A stretch of DNA of 64,000 nt from Pseudomonadota bacterium (GTDB lineage Bacteria; Pseudomonadota; Alphaproteobacteria; Caulobacterales; Caulobacteraceae). Position 1 is the stretch's first letter; every line of letters begins with the position of its first letter. The notes under the pieces were generated by a model, which did no database searches, was not told where the DNA came from, and saw only the letters and a list, made by a program, of their open reading frames with translations. The translations under genes were made by a program, and so were the position numbers. The DNA is taken from assembly GCA_049323595.1 (NCBI GenBank), contig JBMOOD010000001.1, positions 104,530-168,529 of the forward strand, given 5' to 3'. Shown here one piece after another: positions 785 through 60,672 of this stretch.

Positions 785-1504
785 TCAGGCCGTGAGCCGC
801 TTCAGCGCCAGCGCATCGAGCGGCGCGGCGCTCTTCACGTCGTTGTCGAAGTAGGCGTAGACGTCGAGCCCCTCGGATCGCCAGGCGGCGATCCGCCGCG
901 CCCATCCGCGCAGGACGTCTTCGCCGTAGCGTCCGTGGTATCGGCCGCCGGGCCCGTGGCCGCGGACATAGACCCAGTTCGCGGTTACCTCCCAGGGGGC
1001 GGGGGCGTGATGATGGTCGGAGATGCACAGCGCCGCGTCGTACGCGGTCAGGAGGGCGAAGACCGTCGGGTCGTACCAGGACGGGTGACGGAACTCGACC
1101 GTATGACGCCCGGCCGGAAGGAGCCTGAGGAACTCGGCCAGGCGATCATCGTTGCGCCGGAGCTGGGGCGGAAGCTGAATGAGTGAGGGCCCGAGTTTCC
1201 CGCCCAGCGGCGCCATCCGGCCCCAGACCAACGCTACCGGCTCCTGGCAGTCCTTCAGCTTCTTGTTGTGGGTAATGAAGCGGCTGACTTTCCAGGCGAA
1301 CAGGAAGTCCGGCGGCGTCCGCTCGGCCCAGCCGGCCACCGCCGCTTCGGTGGGTAGCCGATAGAAGCTGGCGTTGATCTCGGCGGTGTCGAACTGCGTC
1401 GCATACCACCGGAGGAGGTCGCGCTCCTTCACCTCGCGCGGATAGAAGGGGCCGCGCCAGTCCCTGTAGCTCCAGCCCGAGCAGCCGATGCGAAGCTCGC
1501 CCAT
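785..1504 (-). CDS. DUF72 (YecE-like) TIM-barrel protein
   Basis: RIGCSGWSY, EINASFYRLP, FAWKVSRFITH, EFRHPSW, YVRGHG, YFDND motifs; start placed at MGELRIG. Confidence 0.9.
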   Translation of the reverse strand: MGELRIGCSGWSYRDWRGPFYPREVKERDLLRWYATQFDTAEINASFYRLPTEAAVAGWAERTPPDFLFAWKVSRFITHNKKLKDCQEPVALVWGRMAPLGGKLGPSLIQLPPQLRRNDDRLAEFLRLLPAGRHTVEFRHPSWYDPTVFALLTAYDAALCISDHHHAPAPWEVTANWVYVRGHGPGGRYHGRYGEDVLRGWARRIAAWRSEGLDVYAYFDNDVKSAAPLDALALKRLTA

Positions 1505-1626
1505 GGCCTGGGAAGCGTCGGAACGGCCGCGTGTTCCCGCGAAGGGTGCGTCGCTCAACCGCCGCGGAGTCGCTTCGGACGAGAAGTTCTGCTTTTGTTC
1601 GATCGCAAGAGTAGCAGGAGCGTCCC

Positions 1627-1842
1627 TTGGTGAAGATGAGCTATCCGGGTCTGGCGGACCCTCGCGCCGCGTTCGAGGCGCTTCGGCCCTTCCGCGCCGC
1701 CATCATCGACATGCGCTGCCGGTGCCGGCCATTCCACACCGACTATCTGGTCCTGGATGCGCTGGACAAGGCGCTGACCACCGCTGCCTTTCACTTCACG
1801 CGCGATCCGGAGTTCTATGCCGGCAGGCCGCACAGCTCGTAG
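1627..1842 (+). CDS. Small hypothetical protein (71 aa)
   Basis: AGGAG at 1616-1620, 6 nt before TTG; fills the intergenic gap. Confidence 0.6.
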   Translation: MVKMSYPGLADPRAAFEALRPFRAAIIDMRCRCRPFHTDYLVLDALDKALTTAAFHFTRDPEFYAGRPHSS

Positions 1843-1856
1843 GTCCGCAAACGGAG

Positions 1857-2357
1857 CTAGCGGATCTCCACCGCGTCGCCAGGACGGGCGGCGGCCAGCA
1901 GCGCCTCCAGGTCTTTGCGCTCGATCGCCACGCAGCCGTGGGTCGGCGGATAGCCGGGCCTGCACAGGTGCAGAAAGATCGCCGAGCCCATGCCGGCCAC
2001 AGGCGGATCGTCGTTGTGCCCGAGGACCACGATGATGTCGTAGACGCCTTCTTCGCGCCAAAGGCGTTCGGCGCTGGCGGGATAGGGCAGCTTCACATGG
2101 CGGTTGTATTCGGGATCCTCGGGGTCGTCGCACCAGCCGTCGTCCTCGGCCAGGGCCCGGACGCGCAGTTCGGTGGCCGGCGGCGGCCCCCGGTCGGGCC
2201 GGTAGAAGACCTCTCGGATCGGCCACACGCCCGCAGGCGAGGCGCCGTCGCCCTCGCGCTTCCGGGCCGCGGGCACGACCCCCGCCGGGCCCAGGGCGCA
2301 ACGGACCCGGCGTTCTCCCAGATCCAGCCAACCGTCGGCGGTGGCGGTGAAGATCAC
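1857..2357 (-). CDS. L,D-transpeptidase (YkuD) family protein
   Basis: GSAIFLH...THGCVA catalytic His/Cys motif. Confidence 0.88.
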   Translation of the reverse strand: MIFTATADGWLDLGERRVRCALGPAGVVPAARKREGDGASPAGVWPIREVFYRPDRGPPPATELRVRALAEDDGWCDDPEDPEYNRHVKLPYPASAERLWREEGVYDIIVVLGHNDDPPVAGMGSAIFLHLCRPGYPPTHGCVAIERKDLEALLAAARPGDAVEIR

Positions 2358-2422
2358 GGGAACTCCGGGGCCATCTGGCGAATCTCTTTGCGACGCACGT
2401 CCGACATGGTGTTTGTTGCCGC

Positions 2423-3106
2423 ATGGCTCAACGCAAGACCCTCCTCATCGTCGACGACGACCAGGACCTCCGCGGGGCGATCGCCGAGCAGTTGCAGGCC
2501 GAGGGTTTCGAGACCGTTGAGGCGGCCATGGCGGGCGAAGGCCTGCGCGCCGCCCGCGAGCAGAAGCCCGACCTCATCCTGCTGGACGTCGACCTCCCGG
2601 ACATGGATGGCCGCGAGGCCTGCCGGCGGCTGCGTCAGGACGGCCTGCAGACGCCGGTGATCATGCTGACGGCCGCGGCCGGCGACGAGGACACGGTCCA
2701 GGGGCTGGACGCCGGCGCCAACGACTACGTCACCAAGCCCTACAAGTTCGCCGTGCTGCTCGCGCGCATCCGGGCGCAGCTGCGGGACTACGAGCATTCC
2801 GAAGGCGCGATCTTCCGCCTGGGCGCCTATGAGTTCCGCCCCGCCGCCAAGGTTCTGGTGGACGAGAAGGGCAAGAAGATCCGGCTGACGGAGAAGGAGA
2901 CCAACATCCTGAAGTACCTCTATCGCGCCGGCGACAAGGCCGTGTCGCGCGAGGAGCTTCTGGCCGAGGTCTGGGGCTACAACGCCGGGGTCACCACGCA
3001 CACGCTGGAGACGCATGTCTACCGCCTGCGCCAGAAGATCGAGCCTGACCCGGCGAACGCGCGCCTGCTGCTGACGGAACAGGGCGGCTACCGGCTGGCG
3101 CCTTAG
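2423..3106 (+). CDS. cenR: OmpR-family orphan response regulator, probably CenR
   Basis: Receiver domain (IVDDD, LLDVDLPDMDG, KP) plus winged helix (LTEKE, VWGYNAGVTTHTLETHVYRLRQKIE); divergent from an L,D-transpeptidase. The cenR name is recalled similarity. Confidence 0.75.
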   Translation: MAQRKTLLIVDDDQDLRGAIAEQLQAEGFETVEAAMAGEGLRAAREQKPDLILLDVDLPDMDGREACRRLRQDGLQTPVIMLTAAAGDEDTVQGLDAGANDYVTKPYKFAVLLARIRAQLRDYEHSEGAIFRLGAYEFRPAAKVLVDEKGKKIRLTEKETNILKYLYRAGDKAVSREELLAEVWGYNAGVTTHTLETHVYRLRQKIEPDPANARLLLTEQGGYRLAP

Positions 3107-3112
3107 CTGCCC

Positions 3113-3388
3113 CTACTCCTCTTCCTCGAACCTGCCGGCGACCAGGGCGGCGAGCGCGTCGAGCGCCTCCTGCGCCTGTTCGCCCTCGGCCCGGATCTCG
3201 ATGCAGCAGCCCGGGGAAGCGGCCAGCATCATCAGGCCCATGATGGAGCGGGCGTCCACGGTCTGCCCGTCCTTCGAGACGCTGACTTCGGCGTCGAAGG
3301 CGGCGGCGAGCTTGACGAACTTCGCCGAGGCGCGCGCGTGCAGCCCCCGCTTGTTGACGATCTCGACGGTGCGGCAGGCTTCGCTCAG
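3113..3388 (-). CDS. ptsH: Phosphocarrier protein HPr (apparent CTG start)
   Basis: Hand translation: (L)SEACRTVEIVNKRGLHARASAKFVKLA...VDARSIMGLMMLAA...FEEEE*; contains the GLHAR phospho-His and SIMGL Ser motifs; no ATG/GTG/TTG upstream of GLHAR in frame. Confidence 0.9.
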   Translation of the reverse strand: MSEACRTVEIVNKRGLHARASAKFVKLAAAFDAEVSVSKDGQTVDARSIMGLMMLAASPGCCIEIRAEGEQAQEALDALAALVAGRFEEEE

Positions 3389-3793
3389 CTACTTCTCTCC
3401 GGCCAGGACGTAGGAGGCCACGGAGATGTACTTTCGCCCAGCTTCCTGCGCCGCCGCAACCGCATCCTCCAGGCTGACGCGATTGCGCACGGAGGCCAGC
3501 TTGATGAGCATGGGCAGGTTCAGTCCGGCGATCACCTCGGCCTTGGTCTGCTCCATCACCGAGATGGCAAGGTTGGAGGGCGTGCCGCCGAACATGTCCG
3601 TGAGCAGGACGACGCCCCGTCCGCTCTCTACGCGTCCGCAGGCCGCCAGGATGTCCTGGCGGCGACGCTCCATGTCGTCGTCCGGACCGATGCAGATCGC
3701 CTCCACGGCAGCCTGCGGCCCGACCACGTGTTCCATGGCGTAGATGAACTCTTGCGCCAGCCGGCCGTGAGTGACGATCACGAGGCCGATCAT
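3389..3793 (-). CDS. manX: PTS EIIA component, mannose/fructose family
   Basis: MIGLVIVTHG, LLTDMFGGTPSN, GLNLPML. Confidence 0.9.
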   Translation of the reverse strand: MIGLVIVTHGRLAQEFIYAMEHVVGPQAAVEAICIGPDDDMERRRQDILAACGRVESGRGVVLLTDMFGGTPSNLAISVMEQTKAEVIAGLNLPMLIKLASVRNRVSLEDAVAAAQEAGRKYISVASYVLAGEK

Positions 3794-57946: not shown

Positions 57947-58151
57947 GCCCGGCCGCCCTGACTGTTGCGGGCCACGATGTAGGCCATCGGAGGGGACTCG
58001 ACAAGGTGATTATCCCCTAGACGCATGTACGTCCTGACTCCACACCCCCAAAGCTTCCGGATTGCCTATCAGCTGAGTCGGGTTTCGCGTTTGTTCACAC
58101 AAGCCCACAAGACCTCTTGCGAATCCCCCTAGGGGGCGCTATCTGGCGAGC

Positions 58152-58688
58152 ATGACCGGAAGCGAGAGCGCCATTTTGACGCCCGACCAAGTCCGAGACC
58201 TCGTCTCGGAAGTGACGCGCGCGCGAGAGGAAAAGCGCAGGGCTGACGCCCGGCTCGAAGAGGCGGAGCGTCGGTTGAGCGCCCTAGAGGTGCTTATTGG
58301 AACGAGGCGCATCGAAGAGATCGTCGGGGCCACCAAGGCCGTGCCCGTGCCCACCCCTACCCACGCCGCGCTTAGGGGTGGCAACGCCTCGGCCGCGCAG
58401 GCGGCGAACCAGGGCGTTGAGGTTGCGTGGACGGACTGGATCGTTGAGCAGGTGACGGCCTTTGGCGGCCAGGCCACGTCTCAGATGCTTGTGGATGCCG
58501 CCCGCGCCGACCCGCGCGTCAGCGATCGGTTCAAGCGCACGCCGAACGGCTATTACAACGCCGTGTCCCGCGTCCTCGGGCGCGAGCAGATCAAGAAGGT
58601 TGGCCGGATTCTGGCGTTGCCGAATGTTGAAGTGTCGGAGCCCGGAAGCGGCGAGGCCTCCCCGAAGGGAGGCCCGCTATTCAACTAG
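58152..58688 (+). CDS. IS passenger protein: N-terminal coiled coil plus helical (wHTH-like) C-terminal domain
   Basis: 178-aa ORF inside the IRs; heptad-rich EVTRAREEKRRADARLEEAERRLSALE. Confidence 0.7.
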   Translation: MTGSESAILTPDQVRDLVSEVTRAREEKRRADARLEEAERRLSALEVLIGTRRIEEIVGATKAVPVPTPTHAALRGGNASAAQAANQGVEVAWTDWIVEQVTAFGGQATSQMLVDAARADPRVSDRFKRTPNGYYNAVSRVLGREQIKKVGRILALPNVEVSEPGSGEASPKGGPLFN

Positions 58689-58692
58689 ATAT

Positions 58693-58768
58693 GGGGACGG
58701 AGGGCCGGTGCCCAGGAACGATTTGCAGCGTCTCCCCCAGGGGTTCGACTCCCCCCGTCTCCACACCA
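58693..58768 (+). ncRNA. Non-canonical tRNA-Ala-like RNA carried by the IS
   Basis: Acceptor GGGGACG/CGTCTCC with G3.U70 and A73; D-arm GGGC-CGGT-GCCC; bulged stem with loop ATTTGCAG; T-arm GGGG-TTCGACT-CCCC; 3' tail ACACCA. Confidence 0.7.
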
Positions 58769-58978
58769 TTTCCCGTCTCGGAGGCCATTGCTTGGCGGCA
58801 ACCTCCGGGACATTCCAACAGGGGCCAAGGGCCCTGCTAGGAGCACCCCATGTGGCAAGCCGTCAGATTAGACTAGACGCCCTATGAGGCCAGCGCCGCG
58901 CCGGACTATGTTCGGCGCGGCGATTGGCGTAAGATAGAGACCGTGTGGAATCTGTCAATAGACTCAGAGGGTTAAACC

Positions 58979-59182
58979 GTGGCGACGCCGGAGCGCTTAA
59001 CCCTGAAAAAGGCGTTGAAATCCGGGCGGTTAGACGAGTTCATCGCCCAAGCTGAGCGCGAGGGCGTCGGCCCCGTTTCCGAGGCCGACTTTGACCGCGC
59101 CGTCCGCCGATTGGCTACACAGCGCCAATCAGCAGATCGAACATCGCGTTCTCCATCTGACGATGGTTCGAGCGGAACGTGA
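58979..59182 (+). CDS. IS-associated small protein, convergent with and overlapping the transposase 3' end
   Basis: GAGGG SD before GTG; 67 aa; 68-bp antisense overlap with tnp. Confidence 0.6.
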   Translation: MATPERLTLKKALKSGRLDEFIAQAEREGVGPVSEADFDRAVRRLATQRQSADRTSRSPSDDGSSGT

Positions 59183-59990
59183 ACTCGCCGAGATAGCGGT
59201 CCATGTACTTCGCCGAGACGTGAATGTGTGTCGACTTCACCGACCGCTTGAACAGGCTCCAGAAGCCCTCCAGCGTGTTCGTGTGGTGAGCCTTCCCGCC
59301 CTCGTAGCGAACCCACTCCTCTTGCGAGTGGTTCACCCGGCCGTGCTCGTAGCCGTACTTGGTCAGTAAGTTGTAGCCCGCGTGTTCGTCGGTCGAGATC
59401 GTGGCGCCCGGCTCCACGTTCTCCAGCACGAAGCCTTTGAGGGTGGTCATCTTCGCGTCGGGAACAACCTGGGTGACCTTGCGCCCGCCGCGCACGGCCA
59501 GACCGGCGACGACCGTCTTGTTGCTGTCAGTCGCTCGCCCGCGTTTACCGCCCTTGATCCGGCCGCCAACATACGTCTCGTCCGCCTCAAGGTGGCCCGC
59601 CAGCGCTTCGAAGCCGTCCGCGCGGGCCATGAGGATGCGGATTTGTTGGCCCATCCGCCACGCGGTCTTGTAGGTCACGCCAAGCTGGCGTTGCAGCTCC
59701 TTGCCGCTCACGCCGTGGCGCGTCGTGACGAACAGATAGATCGCGTAGAACCACAGCGTCAGCGGCGTGCGGGTGTCCTGAAAGACCGTCCCGGCGCACG
59801 GATAGACGTGATCGCCACAGTGAGCGCAGGCGTAGGCCGGACGGTTCGCCAGACGGTGGAACGTGGCGTCGACAACGCCGCACTTCCGGCACGTGTGACG
59901 CAGGCCGTACCGCACTTCCATCACGTGCTGGAGGCACGCGGCGTCATCGGGGAAGCGCTTGAAGAACTCTCTGACGGTGAACTTCGGCAT
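59115..59990 (-). CDS. IS1595-family DDE transposase
   Basis: Zn-ribbon CRKC...CAHC, HTH (GVSGKELQRQLGVTYKTAW), catalytic EADETY / STDE / NTLEGFW, YLGEF; intact frame. Confidence 0.95.
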   Translation of the reverse strand: MPKFTVREFFKRFPDDAACLQHVMEVRYGLRHTCRKCGVVDATFHRLANRPAYACAHCGDHVYPCAGTVFQDTRTPLTLWFYAIYLFVTTRHGVSGKELQRQLGVTYKTAWRMGQQIRILMARADGFEALAGHLEADETYVGGRIKGGKRGRATDSNKTVVAGLAVRGGRKVTQVVPDAKMTTLKGFVLENVEPGATISTDEHAGYNLLTKYGYEHGRVNHSQEEWVRYEGGKAHHTNTLEGFWSLFKRSVKSTHIHVSAKYMDRYLGEFTFRSNHRQMENAMFDLLIGAV

Positions 59991-60013
59991 CGGTCGGCCC
60001 TCTCTATGAGCCG

Positions 60014-60042
60014 ATAATGCCCTTTCGTTCTACTTGCGTCAA
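60014..60042 (-). promoter_or_regulatory. Transposase promoter with the -35 inside the IR
   Basis: Minus strand TTGACG (60042-60037)-N17-CATTAT (60019-60014). Confidence 0.65.
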
Positions 60043-60117
60043 GGGGATAGTCACCCTCGACAAACCGCCCAGGTTGTGTTCCTTCTTTGTTCCAAGCTCG
60101 ACCTTTGGAGACCAGGT

Positions 60118-60672
60118 ATGGCTGGAACGAGGATTTGGCTGATGGCGGCCGCGGCGGCCCTGGCCCTCAGCGCATGCGACAACGGCCCGTCGGCGGTCCA
60201 GCCGACCCAGGCGGCCGGGACCCAGATGGCCGAGGCGCCGGGGGCGACCCGACCTTCATCTGTGGACGGGTCCTCCCAGACGGATCACCGCGATGACCCG
60301 GTGAAGCTGGTGGATGGTCGGCCCATGTGGTCCGCCAGCCGCCGCTACTCGGCCGAGGAGAACGCCCAGCGCGCCTTCGACCGCAACGGCGAGGCCTTTG
60401 GCGCCGCCAGCGTCGATGACTTCGTGAGAAAGGCCCACGCCTTCGTGGAGAAGCCGCCGCAGGGCGCCCTGACGCTCACACGGCCCAACGGCGACACCCT
60501 GATCTACGACCCGAAGGCCAACATCTTCGCCGTCGCCAGCAAGGCCGGCGCGCCGCGCACCATGTTCAAGCCGGACGAGGGCATGGCCTACTGGGAGGAA
60601 CAGAAGGCGCGCGAAGCCCGCCGCCAGCAGGCCAGCAGCCGCCGCAGCCGCGAGGACGACGAGGAGGCCTAG
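60118..60672 (+). CDS. Lipoprotein with a CdiA/pyocin-like (tRNase-fold) C-terminal domain
   Basis: LALSAC lipobox; KPPQGALTLTRPNGDTLIYDP..NIFAV...GAPRTMFKPDEGMAYW. Confidence 0.75.
   Translation: MAGTRIWLMAAAAALALSACDNGPSAVQPTQAAGTQMAEAPGATRPSSVDGSSQTDHRDDPVKLVDGRPMWSASRRYSAEENAQRAFDRNGEAFGAASVDDFVRKAHAFVEKPPQGALTLTRPNGDTLIYDPKANIFAVASKAGAPRTMFKPDEGMAYWEEQKAREARRQQASSRRSREDDEEA

Follow-up and report, generated by a model that had tools for sequence, protein, structure and literature searches.

RNAs that have the shape of a tRNA and do not decode are few and instructive; they include tmRNA, mascRNA, viral tRNA-like structures and Y-RNA-like modules. This work concerns a stretch of 64,000 nt from a Caulobacteraceae genome (assembly GCA_049323595.1, contig JBMOOD010000001.1, positions 104,530 to 168,529; this whole stretch is called the window, and coordinates are counted from its first letter) and, within it, a tRNA-Ala-like element at 58693–58763 carried by an insertion sequence (IS) of the IS1595 family. 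With moderate confidence, we propose for the element a functional RNA that derives from tRNA-Ala and forms a fixed cargo of one alphaproteobacterial IS1595 lineage; it would be processed by the host, would punctuate the cargo transcript and is probably alanylated. The fold of the element, its conservation and covariation, its IS context and the modular character of the conservation are observed directly.

The probable evolutionary source of the element is bacterial tRNA-Ala(UGC) (RF00005), with which it shares the 7-bp acceptor stem, G3·U70, A73, G1–C72, G2–C71, the T-loop TTCGAnT and the GG of the D-loop. The G3·U70 pair is the main determinant for alanyl-tRNA synthetase (AlaRS) and constitutes, together with A73, G1–C72 and G2–C71, the alanine identity set. 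Acceptor stem, discriminator and T-arm are thus those of a canonical tRNA; the normal D-arm, U8 and the 5-bp anticodon stem with its 7-nt loop are not found. Instead, the element has a D-loop of 3–4 nt (that of a normal tRNA is about twice as long), no U8, a bulged 6-bp anticodon stem with a drifting loop of 8–9 nt and a T stem mostly of 4 bp. It mostly lacks CCA at positions 74–76, falls below the ARAGORN and Rfam thresholds and sits within an IS, immediately after a protein gene. The tRNA-like domain of tmRNA (RF00023, and the permuted alpha_tmRNA, RF01849) has the same alanine-type acceptor with G3·U70, a canonical T-arm and a reduced D region. In contrast to tmRNA, the halves of the element are contiguous and unpermuted, an internal tag frame and pseudoknots are absent, an anticodon-like arm is present and the score is 28.7 bits where 47 are required.

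As is generally known, MALAT1/mascRNA and tRNA punctuation combine a tRNA shape within a longer transcript with a stabilizing structure upstream; the element shares both, and RNase P would cut it. These systems are eukaryotic or organellar, whereas the element is bacterial, borne by a transposon and keeps an aminoacylation identity set; its processing is predicted. Allo-tRNAs are irregular tRNAs linked to mobile elements, with 8/4 or 9/3 acceptor/T geometry and serine or leucine identity (Mukai et al. 2017, PMC5389517). The element resembles them in its non-canonical tRNA shape next to transposases, but its family has a 7/4–5 geometry, neither 8/4 nor 9/3, and alanine identity. As for the carrier, the IS1595 family of ISfinder reportedly includes insertion sequences with passenger genes; the IS of the window shares with them a DDE transposase with a zinc ribbon, inverted repeats, an 8-bp duplication and cargo placed between one end and the transposase. 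No description of conserved structured-RNA or tRNA-like cargo in IS1595 elements was found in the literature searched, where IS cargo is described as protein. Judged by these features, the element is not a canonical tRNA, a tmRNA or an allo-tRNA, and it resembles a mascRNA-type or punctuation module equipped with a tmRNA-like identity set.

Fold and conservation of the tRNA-like element

The cloverleaf extends on the plus strand from G1 to A73 (58693–58763), as seen by sequence check, Rfam, ARAGORN and covariation. Its acceptor stem pairs 58693–58699 (GGGGACG) with 58756–58762 (CGTCTCC), G58695·T58760 being the G3·U70 pair, and is followed by the discriminator A58763 (A73) and a CACCA tail (58764–58768), where A-CA-CCA replaces A-CCA. 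The D hairpin (58702–58713) reads GGGC/CGGT/GCCC. The anticodon-like arm (58715–58735) reads GGA-ACG/ATTTGCAG/CGT-C-TCC, which corresponds to a bulged 6-bp stem and an 8-nt loop, and the T-arm (58740–58754) reads GGGG/TTCGACT/CCCC with A·C as its fifth pair. Position 8 is a G and U8 is therefore absent. This cloverleaf, with its G3·U70 pair, its three further arms, the A·C mismatch and the missing U8, had been drawn in a first-pass annotation of the window and is confirmed on the sequence in every part; the minimum-free-energy fold given by RNAfold is the same. The 9/4 acceptor/T register offered there as an alternative does not hold in the homologues: its extra pairs are not conserved, position −1 being T, C, A or G, and positions 8 and 65 are unpaired with each other in subgroup B.

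Run with default settings, ARAGORN makes no call anywhere in the window, nor does Rfam at gathering thresholds. With its threshold set to 95%, ARAGORN reports 58693–58764 as ‘tRNA-?(Gln|Ala)(ttgc)’ and gives it an 8-nt loop. When Rfam is scanned permissively, tmRNA ranks first (28.7 bits, E = 1e-9, gathering score 47), with an alignment confined to model positions 1–12 and 340–374, i.e. to the 5′ acceptor strand and to the T-arm with the 3′ acceptor strand; the element has 34 nt where the model spans ∼314 positions. ARAGORN and the Rfam tRNA and tmRNA models had been named as checks in the first-pass annotation; ARAGORN calls the element at a threshold of 95% or lower only, and the Rfam models yield nothing at gathering thresholds. 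The element sits slightly under the standard detector thresholds and represents an unannotated RNA family missed by tRNA and Rfam pipelines.

Eleven homologues are compiled, namely the window element and L011, L063, L150, L153, L154, L155, L182, L183, L184 and L185; they cover four alphaproteobacterial families and two metagenomes. In L011 the element begins 4 nt after the stop codon of a homologue of ORF178, the protein gene that precedes the window element, and has the acceptor GGGGCGC/GCGCTCC. DNA pattern scans of genome and metagenome contigs, which required an ACACC tail and were thereby biased in what they could find, added L063, from a Caulobacteraceae metagenome-assembled genome (MAG), and L150, from a metagenome. 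Two covariance models (R1 and R2), built from the first homologues and run over ∼1,200 genomes sampled from the order, class and family, found L153, L154, L155, L182, L183, L184 and L185. The R2 scores of the eleven members range from 61 to 94 bits, against 25–48 bits for genuine tRNA-Ala genes. Matches occurred in 3 of 400 genomes of the order sample, 1 of 400 of the class sample and 4 of 400 of the family sample, which overlaps the order sample; the element is thus rare. A further locus, L070, is divergent (46 bits), yet an IS1595 transposase lies 0.9 kb away.

Two other genes were encountered in MAGs, L069 (4158–4234, Parcubacteria group) and L146 (2435–2509). Both are stand-alone G3·U70 tRNA-like genes in MAGs of candidate-phyla type; they share the short D hairpin of the family, its 4-nt loop reading NGGT, have an irregular anticodon arm and carry an ACACC tail, and no transposase is found nearby. 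Their R2 scores lie within the tRNA-Ala background, and both were left unassigned.

Covariation was evaluated on a model-guided alignment of the eleven members, some of them close relatives, and it should be kept in mind that the fit to the model flatters the following pair counts: standard pairs occupy 92.1% of cells against 74.3% in shuffles, a value reached by 0 of 500 shuffles, and changes on both sides are seen at 14 of 21 pairs. Covariation scores 0.470, whereas shuffles give 0.145 (0 of 500 reach the observed value) and partners slid by 1–3 columns give no more than 0.138. RNAalifold, which predicts a structure of its own, arrives at this cloverleaf too, and 13 of its 20 pairs are compensatory. 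The acceptor stem occurs in eight different sequences, yet pairing is found in 77 of 77 cells, with all 7 bp formed in every member; pairs 1–3 (G–C, G–C and G·U) are invariant, and pairs 4–7 each show double changes. In the T stem, 44 of 44 cells are paired and two pairs are changed on both sides. Compensatory changes in homologues, named in the first-pass annotation as a check, are therefore plentiful, which speaks against a decayed one-off copy.

Invariant in all eleven members are G1–C72, G2–C71, G3·U70, A73, C74, the GG of the 3–4-nt D-loop and the T-loop TTCGA. The element thus retains the coaxial minihelix of acceptor and T-arm, the elbow formed by D-loop GG and T-loop, and the alanine identity set, which at the sequence level is complete in 11 of 11 members, including the 7-bp acceptor stem. 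A change of U70 to C would strengthen the stem and is never seen, although neighbouring positions have been replaced repeatedly, which argues for selection on the G·U wobble itself. Collectively, these patterns point to a tRNA-Ala derivative under clear purifying selection on the features that RNase P, the CCA-adding enzyme and AlaRS would read.

By the same comparison, the decoding part of the tRNA shape is not conserved. Six members have the anticodon-like loop A-Y-U-U-G-C-A-N, which is the tRNA-Ala(UGC) loop with one extra 5′ base; four have a 9-nt loop N-CUAU-(G/C)-CAC in which U33 has become A, and two of these carry UCC for UGC; L155 has an unrelated loop of 13 nt. The 3′ tails are equally diverse, with ACACC(A/T) in six members, ACTCCA in one, ACCAC in two, ACCTAC in one and ACTTTG in one, and ACCA is encoded in L153 and L185 only. 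A U-rich trailer follows the tail. The first-pass suggestion that the element may be chargeable without being a normal decoder agrees with this picture, in which the identity set is fixed across 11 homologues and eight acceptor stems while the anticodon-like loop varies.

The RNA module and its insertion sequence

Two features of the locus went beyond the first-pass annotation: the element is cargo of an IS1595-family IS and forms the 5′ part of a bigger conserved RNA module. Nucleotide similarity between members begins no more than ∼5 nt from G1 and extends to about +170, in insertion sequences whose transposases are ∼30–35% identical to each other. On this comparison, the conserved core is an RNA module of ∼175 nt with the tRNA-like element as its 5′ domain, followed in order by hairpin 1, hairpin 2 and an AGGAG motif with a mini-ORF. 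Hairpin 1 (58775–58811, plus strand) is a long imperfect stem-loop found by folding; its consensus stem has 10 bp, several of them double-changed in eight members. Hairpin 2 (58821–58835, plus strand), with the sequence GGGGCC-AAG-GGCCCT, is kept in sequence and structure in eight members, where the family form is GGGGCC-AAA-GGCCCC. Next come the Shine–Dalgarno-like AGGAG, a 6-nt spacer and the mini-ORF MWQAVRLD* (58839–58876, plus strand; ATG TGG CAA GCC GTC AGA TTA GAC TAG). The string AGGAG-N6-8-(A/G)TGTG is invariant in eight members. The mini-ORFs have 6–8 codons, as in MWQAVRLD*, MWQAHRR*, MCYAAA* and MCYAVS*; their first four codons are conserved by subgroup (MWQA or MCYA), and beyond codon 4 they vary. 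The module has no match in the plasmid collection searched.

Several observations surround the mini-ORF. It occurs at the same position in L063, L011, L150, L153, L183, L184, L185, L155 and L012, a related IS without tRNA-like element described below. A possible 2-bp hairpin around its start exchanges C–G for G–C between subgroups, with codon 2 changing from TGG to TGC. This suggests a constraint at the level of RNA rather than peptide. Two long-range pairings, inspected by eye, were discarded: the one between anticodon-like loop and mini-ORF involves only 4–5 nt at differing positions in the two subgroups and was judged a chance match, and the one between the tail CACC and the D-loop GGUG shows no covariation. 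Further downstream, hairpin 3 (58894–58922, plus strand) is an inverted repeat with a 13-bp stem, 92% complementary; analogous GC hairpins are present in L063, L011 and L150.

On the 5′ side, a GC-rich stem-loop, hairpin 0 (58650–58678, plus strand; −24.2 kcal/mol), overlaps the 3′ end of ORF178 and ends 14 nt before G1; only 1.2% of local 45-nt windows are equally stable. All eleven members have a comparable stable hairpin upstream of G1, at a median rank of 0.03 among local 45-nt windows, and the unpaired nucleotides between it and G1 number 3–14. The stop codon of the upstream protein gene is located 4–6 nt before G1 in five members.

The protein gene in question, ORF178 (58152–58688, plus strand; GC3 0.80), encodes a cargo protein in which a long N-terminal helix is followed by a C-terminal domain, also helical and poorly resolved. 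It belongs to no Pfam or NCBIfam family, and a search of 5.8 billion proteins gave a single homologue, on the 1-kb metagenomic contig L011. The AlphaFold single-sequence model is confident for helix 11–49 only. The upstream proteins of the other members are alike in layout, with a long N-terminal helix and then one or two small helical domains, and unrelated in sequence, except for the pairs window/L011 and L153/L185. Searches of Pfam and the PDB, including one with a profile of the C-terminal domain, gave only weak, non-significant matches of winged-helix type; from such weak hints, a winged-helix nature of these domains may be conjectured.

The carrier is a sharply bounded IS of 2,051 bp (58005–60055). 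The element lies in a stretch of ∼2.4 kb with lower GC content between coaBC–dut and ubiB–ubiE. The left terminal inverted repeat (GGTGATTATCCCCTAGACGCATGTA, 58005–58029, plus strand) has 25 nt and is 88% complementary to the right one (60031–60055, given on the plus strand), which also has 25 nt and holds a promoter-like site for the transposase (60042–60014, minus strand). Abutting both repeats is the same 8-mer, CTCGACAA, at 57997–58004 on the left and 60056–60063 on the right; 8 bp is the usual length of target duplication in the IS1595 family. When the flanks are joined with one copy of the 8-mer, they match six genomes of the same genus without interruption, as expected of an empty site. 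The IS is present once in the host genome and is absent from the other genomes of the genus searched (36 in one search, further ones in another). Single copy, absence in relatives and empty site together indicate a precise insertion, probably a recent one. The transposase gene (59115–59990, minus strand) is uninterrupted and encodes a DDE enzyme of 291 aa, recognized by Pfam (DDE_Tnp_IS1595, PF12762, 135 bits; Zn_ribbon_IS1595, PF12760, 35.5 bits) and NCBIfam (NF033547, 199 bits against a cut-off of 75). An N-terminal zinc ribbon, inverted repeats, an 8-bp duplication and an empty site are what characterizes an IS1595-family member, and all are found here. A transposase of the IS1595 type is encoded inside the fetched locus in 7 of 11 members; for L011, L150 and L153 the contig or locus is short and may end before any transposase, and L154 adjoins a transposase of another family.

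Proposed processing and charging, and competing explanations

From the arrangement described above we infer co-transcription, RNase P cleavage, alanylation and a biological purpose. The element would be co-transcribed with the small protein gene upstream, because the 3–14 unpaired nucleotides that separate hairpin 0 from G1 leave no room for a promoter. RNase P would then cut at G1, so that the upstream mRNA would be left ending in the protective hairpin 0 and would be separated from the downstream RNA that contains the hairpins and the mini-ORF. On the 3′ side, a cut in the U-rich trailer would be followed by trimming or by repair with the CCA-adding enzyme, and the released tRNA-like RNA would probably be charged with alanine. 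At the sequence level, the element has what an RNase P substrate needs, namely a coaxial helix of 7 + 4–5 bp, an intact elbow and a single-stranded leader. RNase P prefers U at position −1, and U is read there from the alignment in 7 of 11 members. Among the functions proposed at first pass, we favour that of an RNase P processing signal; the decoy suggested there stays a candidate. The companion proposal of an RNase Z signal is not supported, since the host lacks canonical RNase Z (the top match in its genome scores 60 bits, where 293 are required). Each of the 42 genuine tRNA genes of the host has an encoded CCA; with no canonical RNase Z, the 3′ ends of the host tRNAs are presumably matured by exonucleases. 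The purpose of the element may be punctuation of the transcript alone, or may include a role in trans of the charged RNA.

Several points weigh against this proposal. The folding energy of the cloverleaf is ordinary for its GC-rich composition (z = −0.6) and alone proves nothing; that the element is more than chance follows from the homologues, whose pair counts are in turn flattered by the model-guided alignment. Most members have no CCA at positions 74–76, and a chargeable end therefore requires trimming to A73 or C74 and repair by the CCA-adding enzyme. Such trimming and repair is plausible and assumed, and it is the chief weakness in the argument for alanylation. A pure RNase P signal needs neither G3·U70 nor an anticodon-like arm, so that the function may go beyond processing. 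Across members, G1 follows the stop codon at a distance that varies from 4 to 153 nt. Finally, in L155 (G153 contig 1, 150163–150245 and upstream) the ORF of the upstream helical protein seemingly reads through the tRNA-like element; the transposase is here upstream on the same strand, and the case reflects a genuine variant or else a frame error of the assembly.

The excess of identity over what RNase P needs is also an argument for another explanation, possible though unlikely, in which the element is an alanine-charged, non-decoding tRNA-like RNA with its own role in trans and processing is merely its route of maturation. It could be a minimal tmRNA-like or alanine-tailing ribosome-rescue factor, it could donate alanine to a non-ribosomal transferase, or it could sense charging and couple transposon activity to the translational state. 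The AlaRS identity set is invariant, tmRNA is the top-scoring Rfam family, the D region is reduced as in the tRNA-like domains of tmRNA, and the mini-ORF is always nearby. However, an anticodon-like arm occupies the place where SmpB would replace the missing arm, neither an mRNA-like domain nor pseudoknots separate the halves, and the mini-ORF starts from an AGGAG and an ATG of its own and has no conserved end resembling a degradation tag. Moreover, the IS encodes no partner transferase or SmpB-like protein, most members have a non-canonical 3′ end, and the host has a complete ssrA (permuted, two-piece, contig 26; Rfam 239 bits; tag ANDNFAEEVRLAA). The absent mRNA-like domain, the anticodon arm and the normal ssrA likewise give no support to a mimic, in the strict sense, of the tmRNA tRNA-like domain put forward at first pass. 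Distinctly doubtful is the idea that the charged transposon RNA enters stalled or terminating ribosomes, or reports the alanine-charging or translational state through mini-ORF and hairpins, and in this way tunes transposon expression.

A working decoder is very unlikely. According to this explanation, the element would be an expanded-loop tRNA-Ala(UGC), acting as a +1 suppressor at GCA-N or as a private decoder of the genes of the IS, and the Y-U-UGC-A loop with one extra 5′ base in six members invites such a view. Against it stand the four 9-nt loops with U33 changed to A, two of them with UCC, the unrelated 13-nt loop of L155, and the absence of U8 and of a normal D-loop. Transposase, ORF178 and ORF67 (a small gene opposite the transposase) are uninterrupted, so no frameshift is required; nine aligned transposases have no GCA, CAA or other rare codon at a conserved column, GCA occurs 0–4 times per transposase gene and CAA is absent from L063. 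The +1 frameshift suppressor of the first-pass annotation meets the same objections, to which is added that the 8-nt loop is not family-wide. A transposase locked by codon usage to its own decoder was considered separately and ruled out, for want of a conserved GCA, CAA or rare-codon column. As proposed above, the element is not an ordinary decoder because its anticodon-like loop is free to drift. Of the first-pass interpretation as a whole, the chargeable non-decoder is supported, and the frameshift suppressor, the strict tmRNA mimic and the RNase Z signal are not.

Highly improbable is a neutral relic, i.e. a captured tRNA-Ala gene or a 3′ fragment left by an integration event, decaying and functionless. 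The T-arm and 3′ acceptor strand, the last 27 nt of the element, match the 3′ end of host tRNA-Ala(CGC) with 93% identity, the D and anticodon regions of the element are degenerate, and another truncated tRNA-Ala remnant exists in the genome (L004). A relic, however, would not be expected to have acceptor and T stems perfectly paired through repeated double substitutions with a G·U that is never G–C, nor to survive at a constant place in the cargo of insertion sequences with ∼30–35% identical transposases and neighbouring ORFs that are unrecognizably different; it would also not include the matching 5′ acceptor strand, which attachment-site remnants lack. A remnant of integration at tRNA-Ala(CGC) itself was ruled out in particular. 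The gene of this tRNA is on the opposite strand at a distance of 92 kb, the element has its matching 5′ acceptor strand and lies within the IS inverted repeats, and pair 5:68 differs on both sides (C–G in the host tRNA, A–T in the element), a compensatory change.

Least probable of all is a DNA-level site for recombination or cassette exchange of upstream cargo genes, or a target for another mobile element: the breakpoint of homology between members does coincide with the 5′ edge of the element and tRNA genes are, as is generally known, classic integration targets, but the DDE transposase is the only recombinase in the IS, conservation obeys pairing of the plus-strand RNA, where the invariant G·U would be A·C on the other strand, and the conserved bases of T-loop/D-loop tertiary contacts are meaningless for DNA.

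Host context and meaning of the element

The host is an alphaproteobacterium with a genome of 70% GC in 37 contigs. Its tRNA set is ordinary, except that the assembly lacks tRNA-Ala(UGC) and tRNA-Ile, presumably since both lie in rRNA operons that did not assemble. The element is none of these host tRNAs. ARAGORN also calls seven over-long tRNAs that lack CCA, apparently false positives, and it misses the permuted ssrA found by Rfam. That the element might be a fragment or duplicate of the host tmRNA was ruled out, ssrA being intact on contig 26 and different in sequence. The truncated remnant mentioned above (L004 1501–1552, contig 20 41080–41131) consists of 52 nt, GGGGCCC...AAGAGGTCAGCGGTTCGACTCCGCTTAGCTCCACCA, followed by a terminator-like hairpin; it resembles the 3′ half of tRNA-Ala(GGC) and is probably a remnant at an integration site.

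Other features of the IS concern its right half and its flank. ORF67 (58979–59182, plus strand) encodes a small protein without a family match; its gene converges on that of the transposase and overlaps the 3′ end of the latter by 68 nt. A homologous small ORF is seen by eye at this place in the related IS of plasmid CP122394, and other members have a different small basic ORF there, sometimes on the opposite strand. A good match to a sigma-70-like promoter on the minus strand (58958–58931, TTGACA-16-TATCTT, 10/12) points leftward; transcription from it would run antisense to hairpin 3, the mini-ORF and the tRNA-like element. By chance, ∼0.3 such matches would be expected in the region. On the right, in the region 60056–60672, a putative lipoprotein gene (signal LALSAC) has its likely true start at ATG 60118, ∼55 nt downstream of the inserted IS; its expression may be affected by the inverted repeat and the sequence adjacent to it on the outside.

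The related IS, L012 (∼916–3442 in locus coordinates), resides on a Geminicoccaceae plasmid (CP122394.1) and is flanked by similar inverted repeats (GGGGATTATCCCC...). It encodes a helical ORF198 and the mini-ORF MRQTALLG*, as well as an ORF107 with a borderline Cas2/VapD-like match (23.5 bits against a cut-off of 23.8). The tRNA-like element is absent from it, and a T-arm-like hairpin, CTTGG-TTCCACT-CCAAG, stands in its place.

The proposal that we favour remains that of a processed, punctuating and probably alanylated cargo RNA. A conserved derivative of tRNA-Ala is found inside a DNA transposon, across insertion sequences that have otherwise diverged almost beyond recognition. If the element is processed, it would constitute a compact natural device of ‘RNA punctuation’, with which a mobile element divides a single transcript into segments that meet different fates. 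If charging takes place, the element would be a mobile alanine-accepting RNA.

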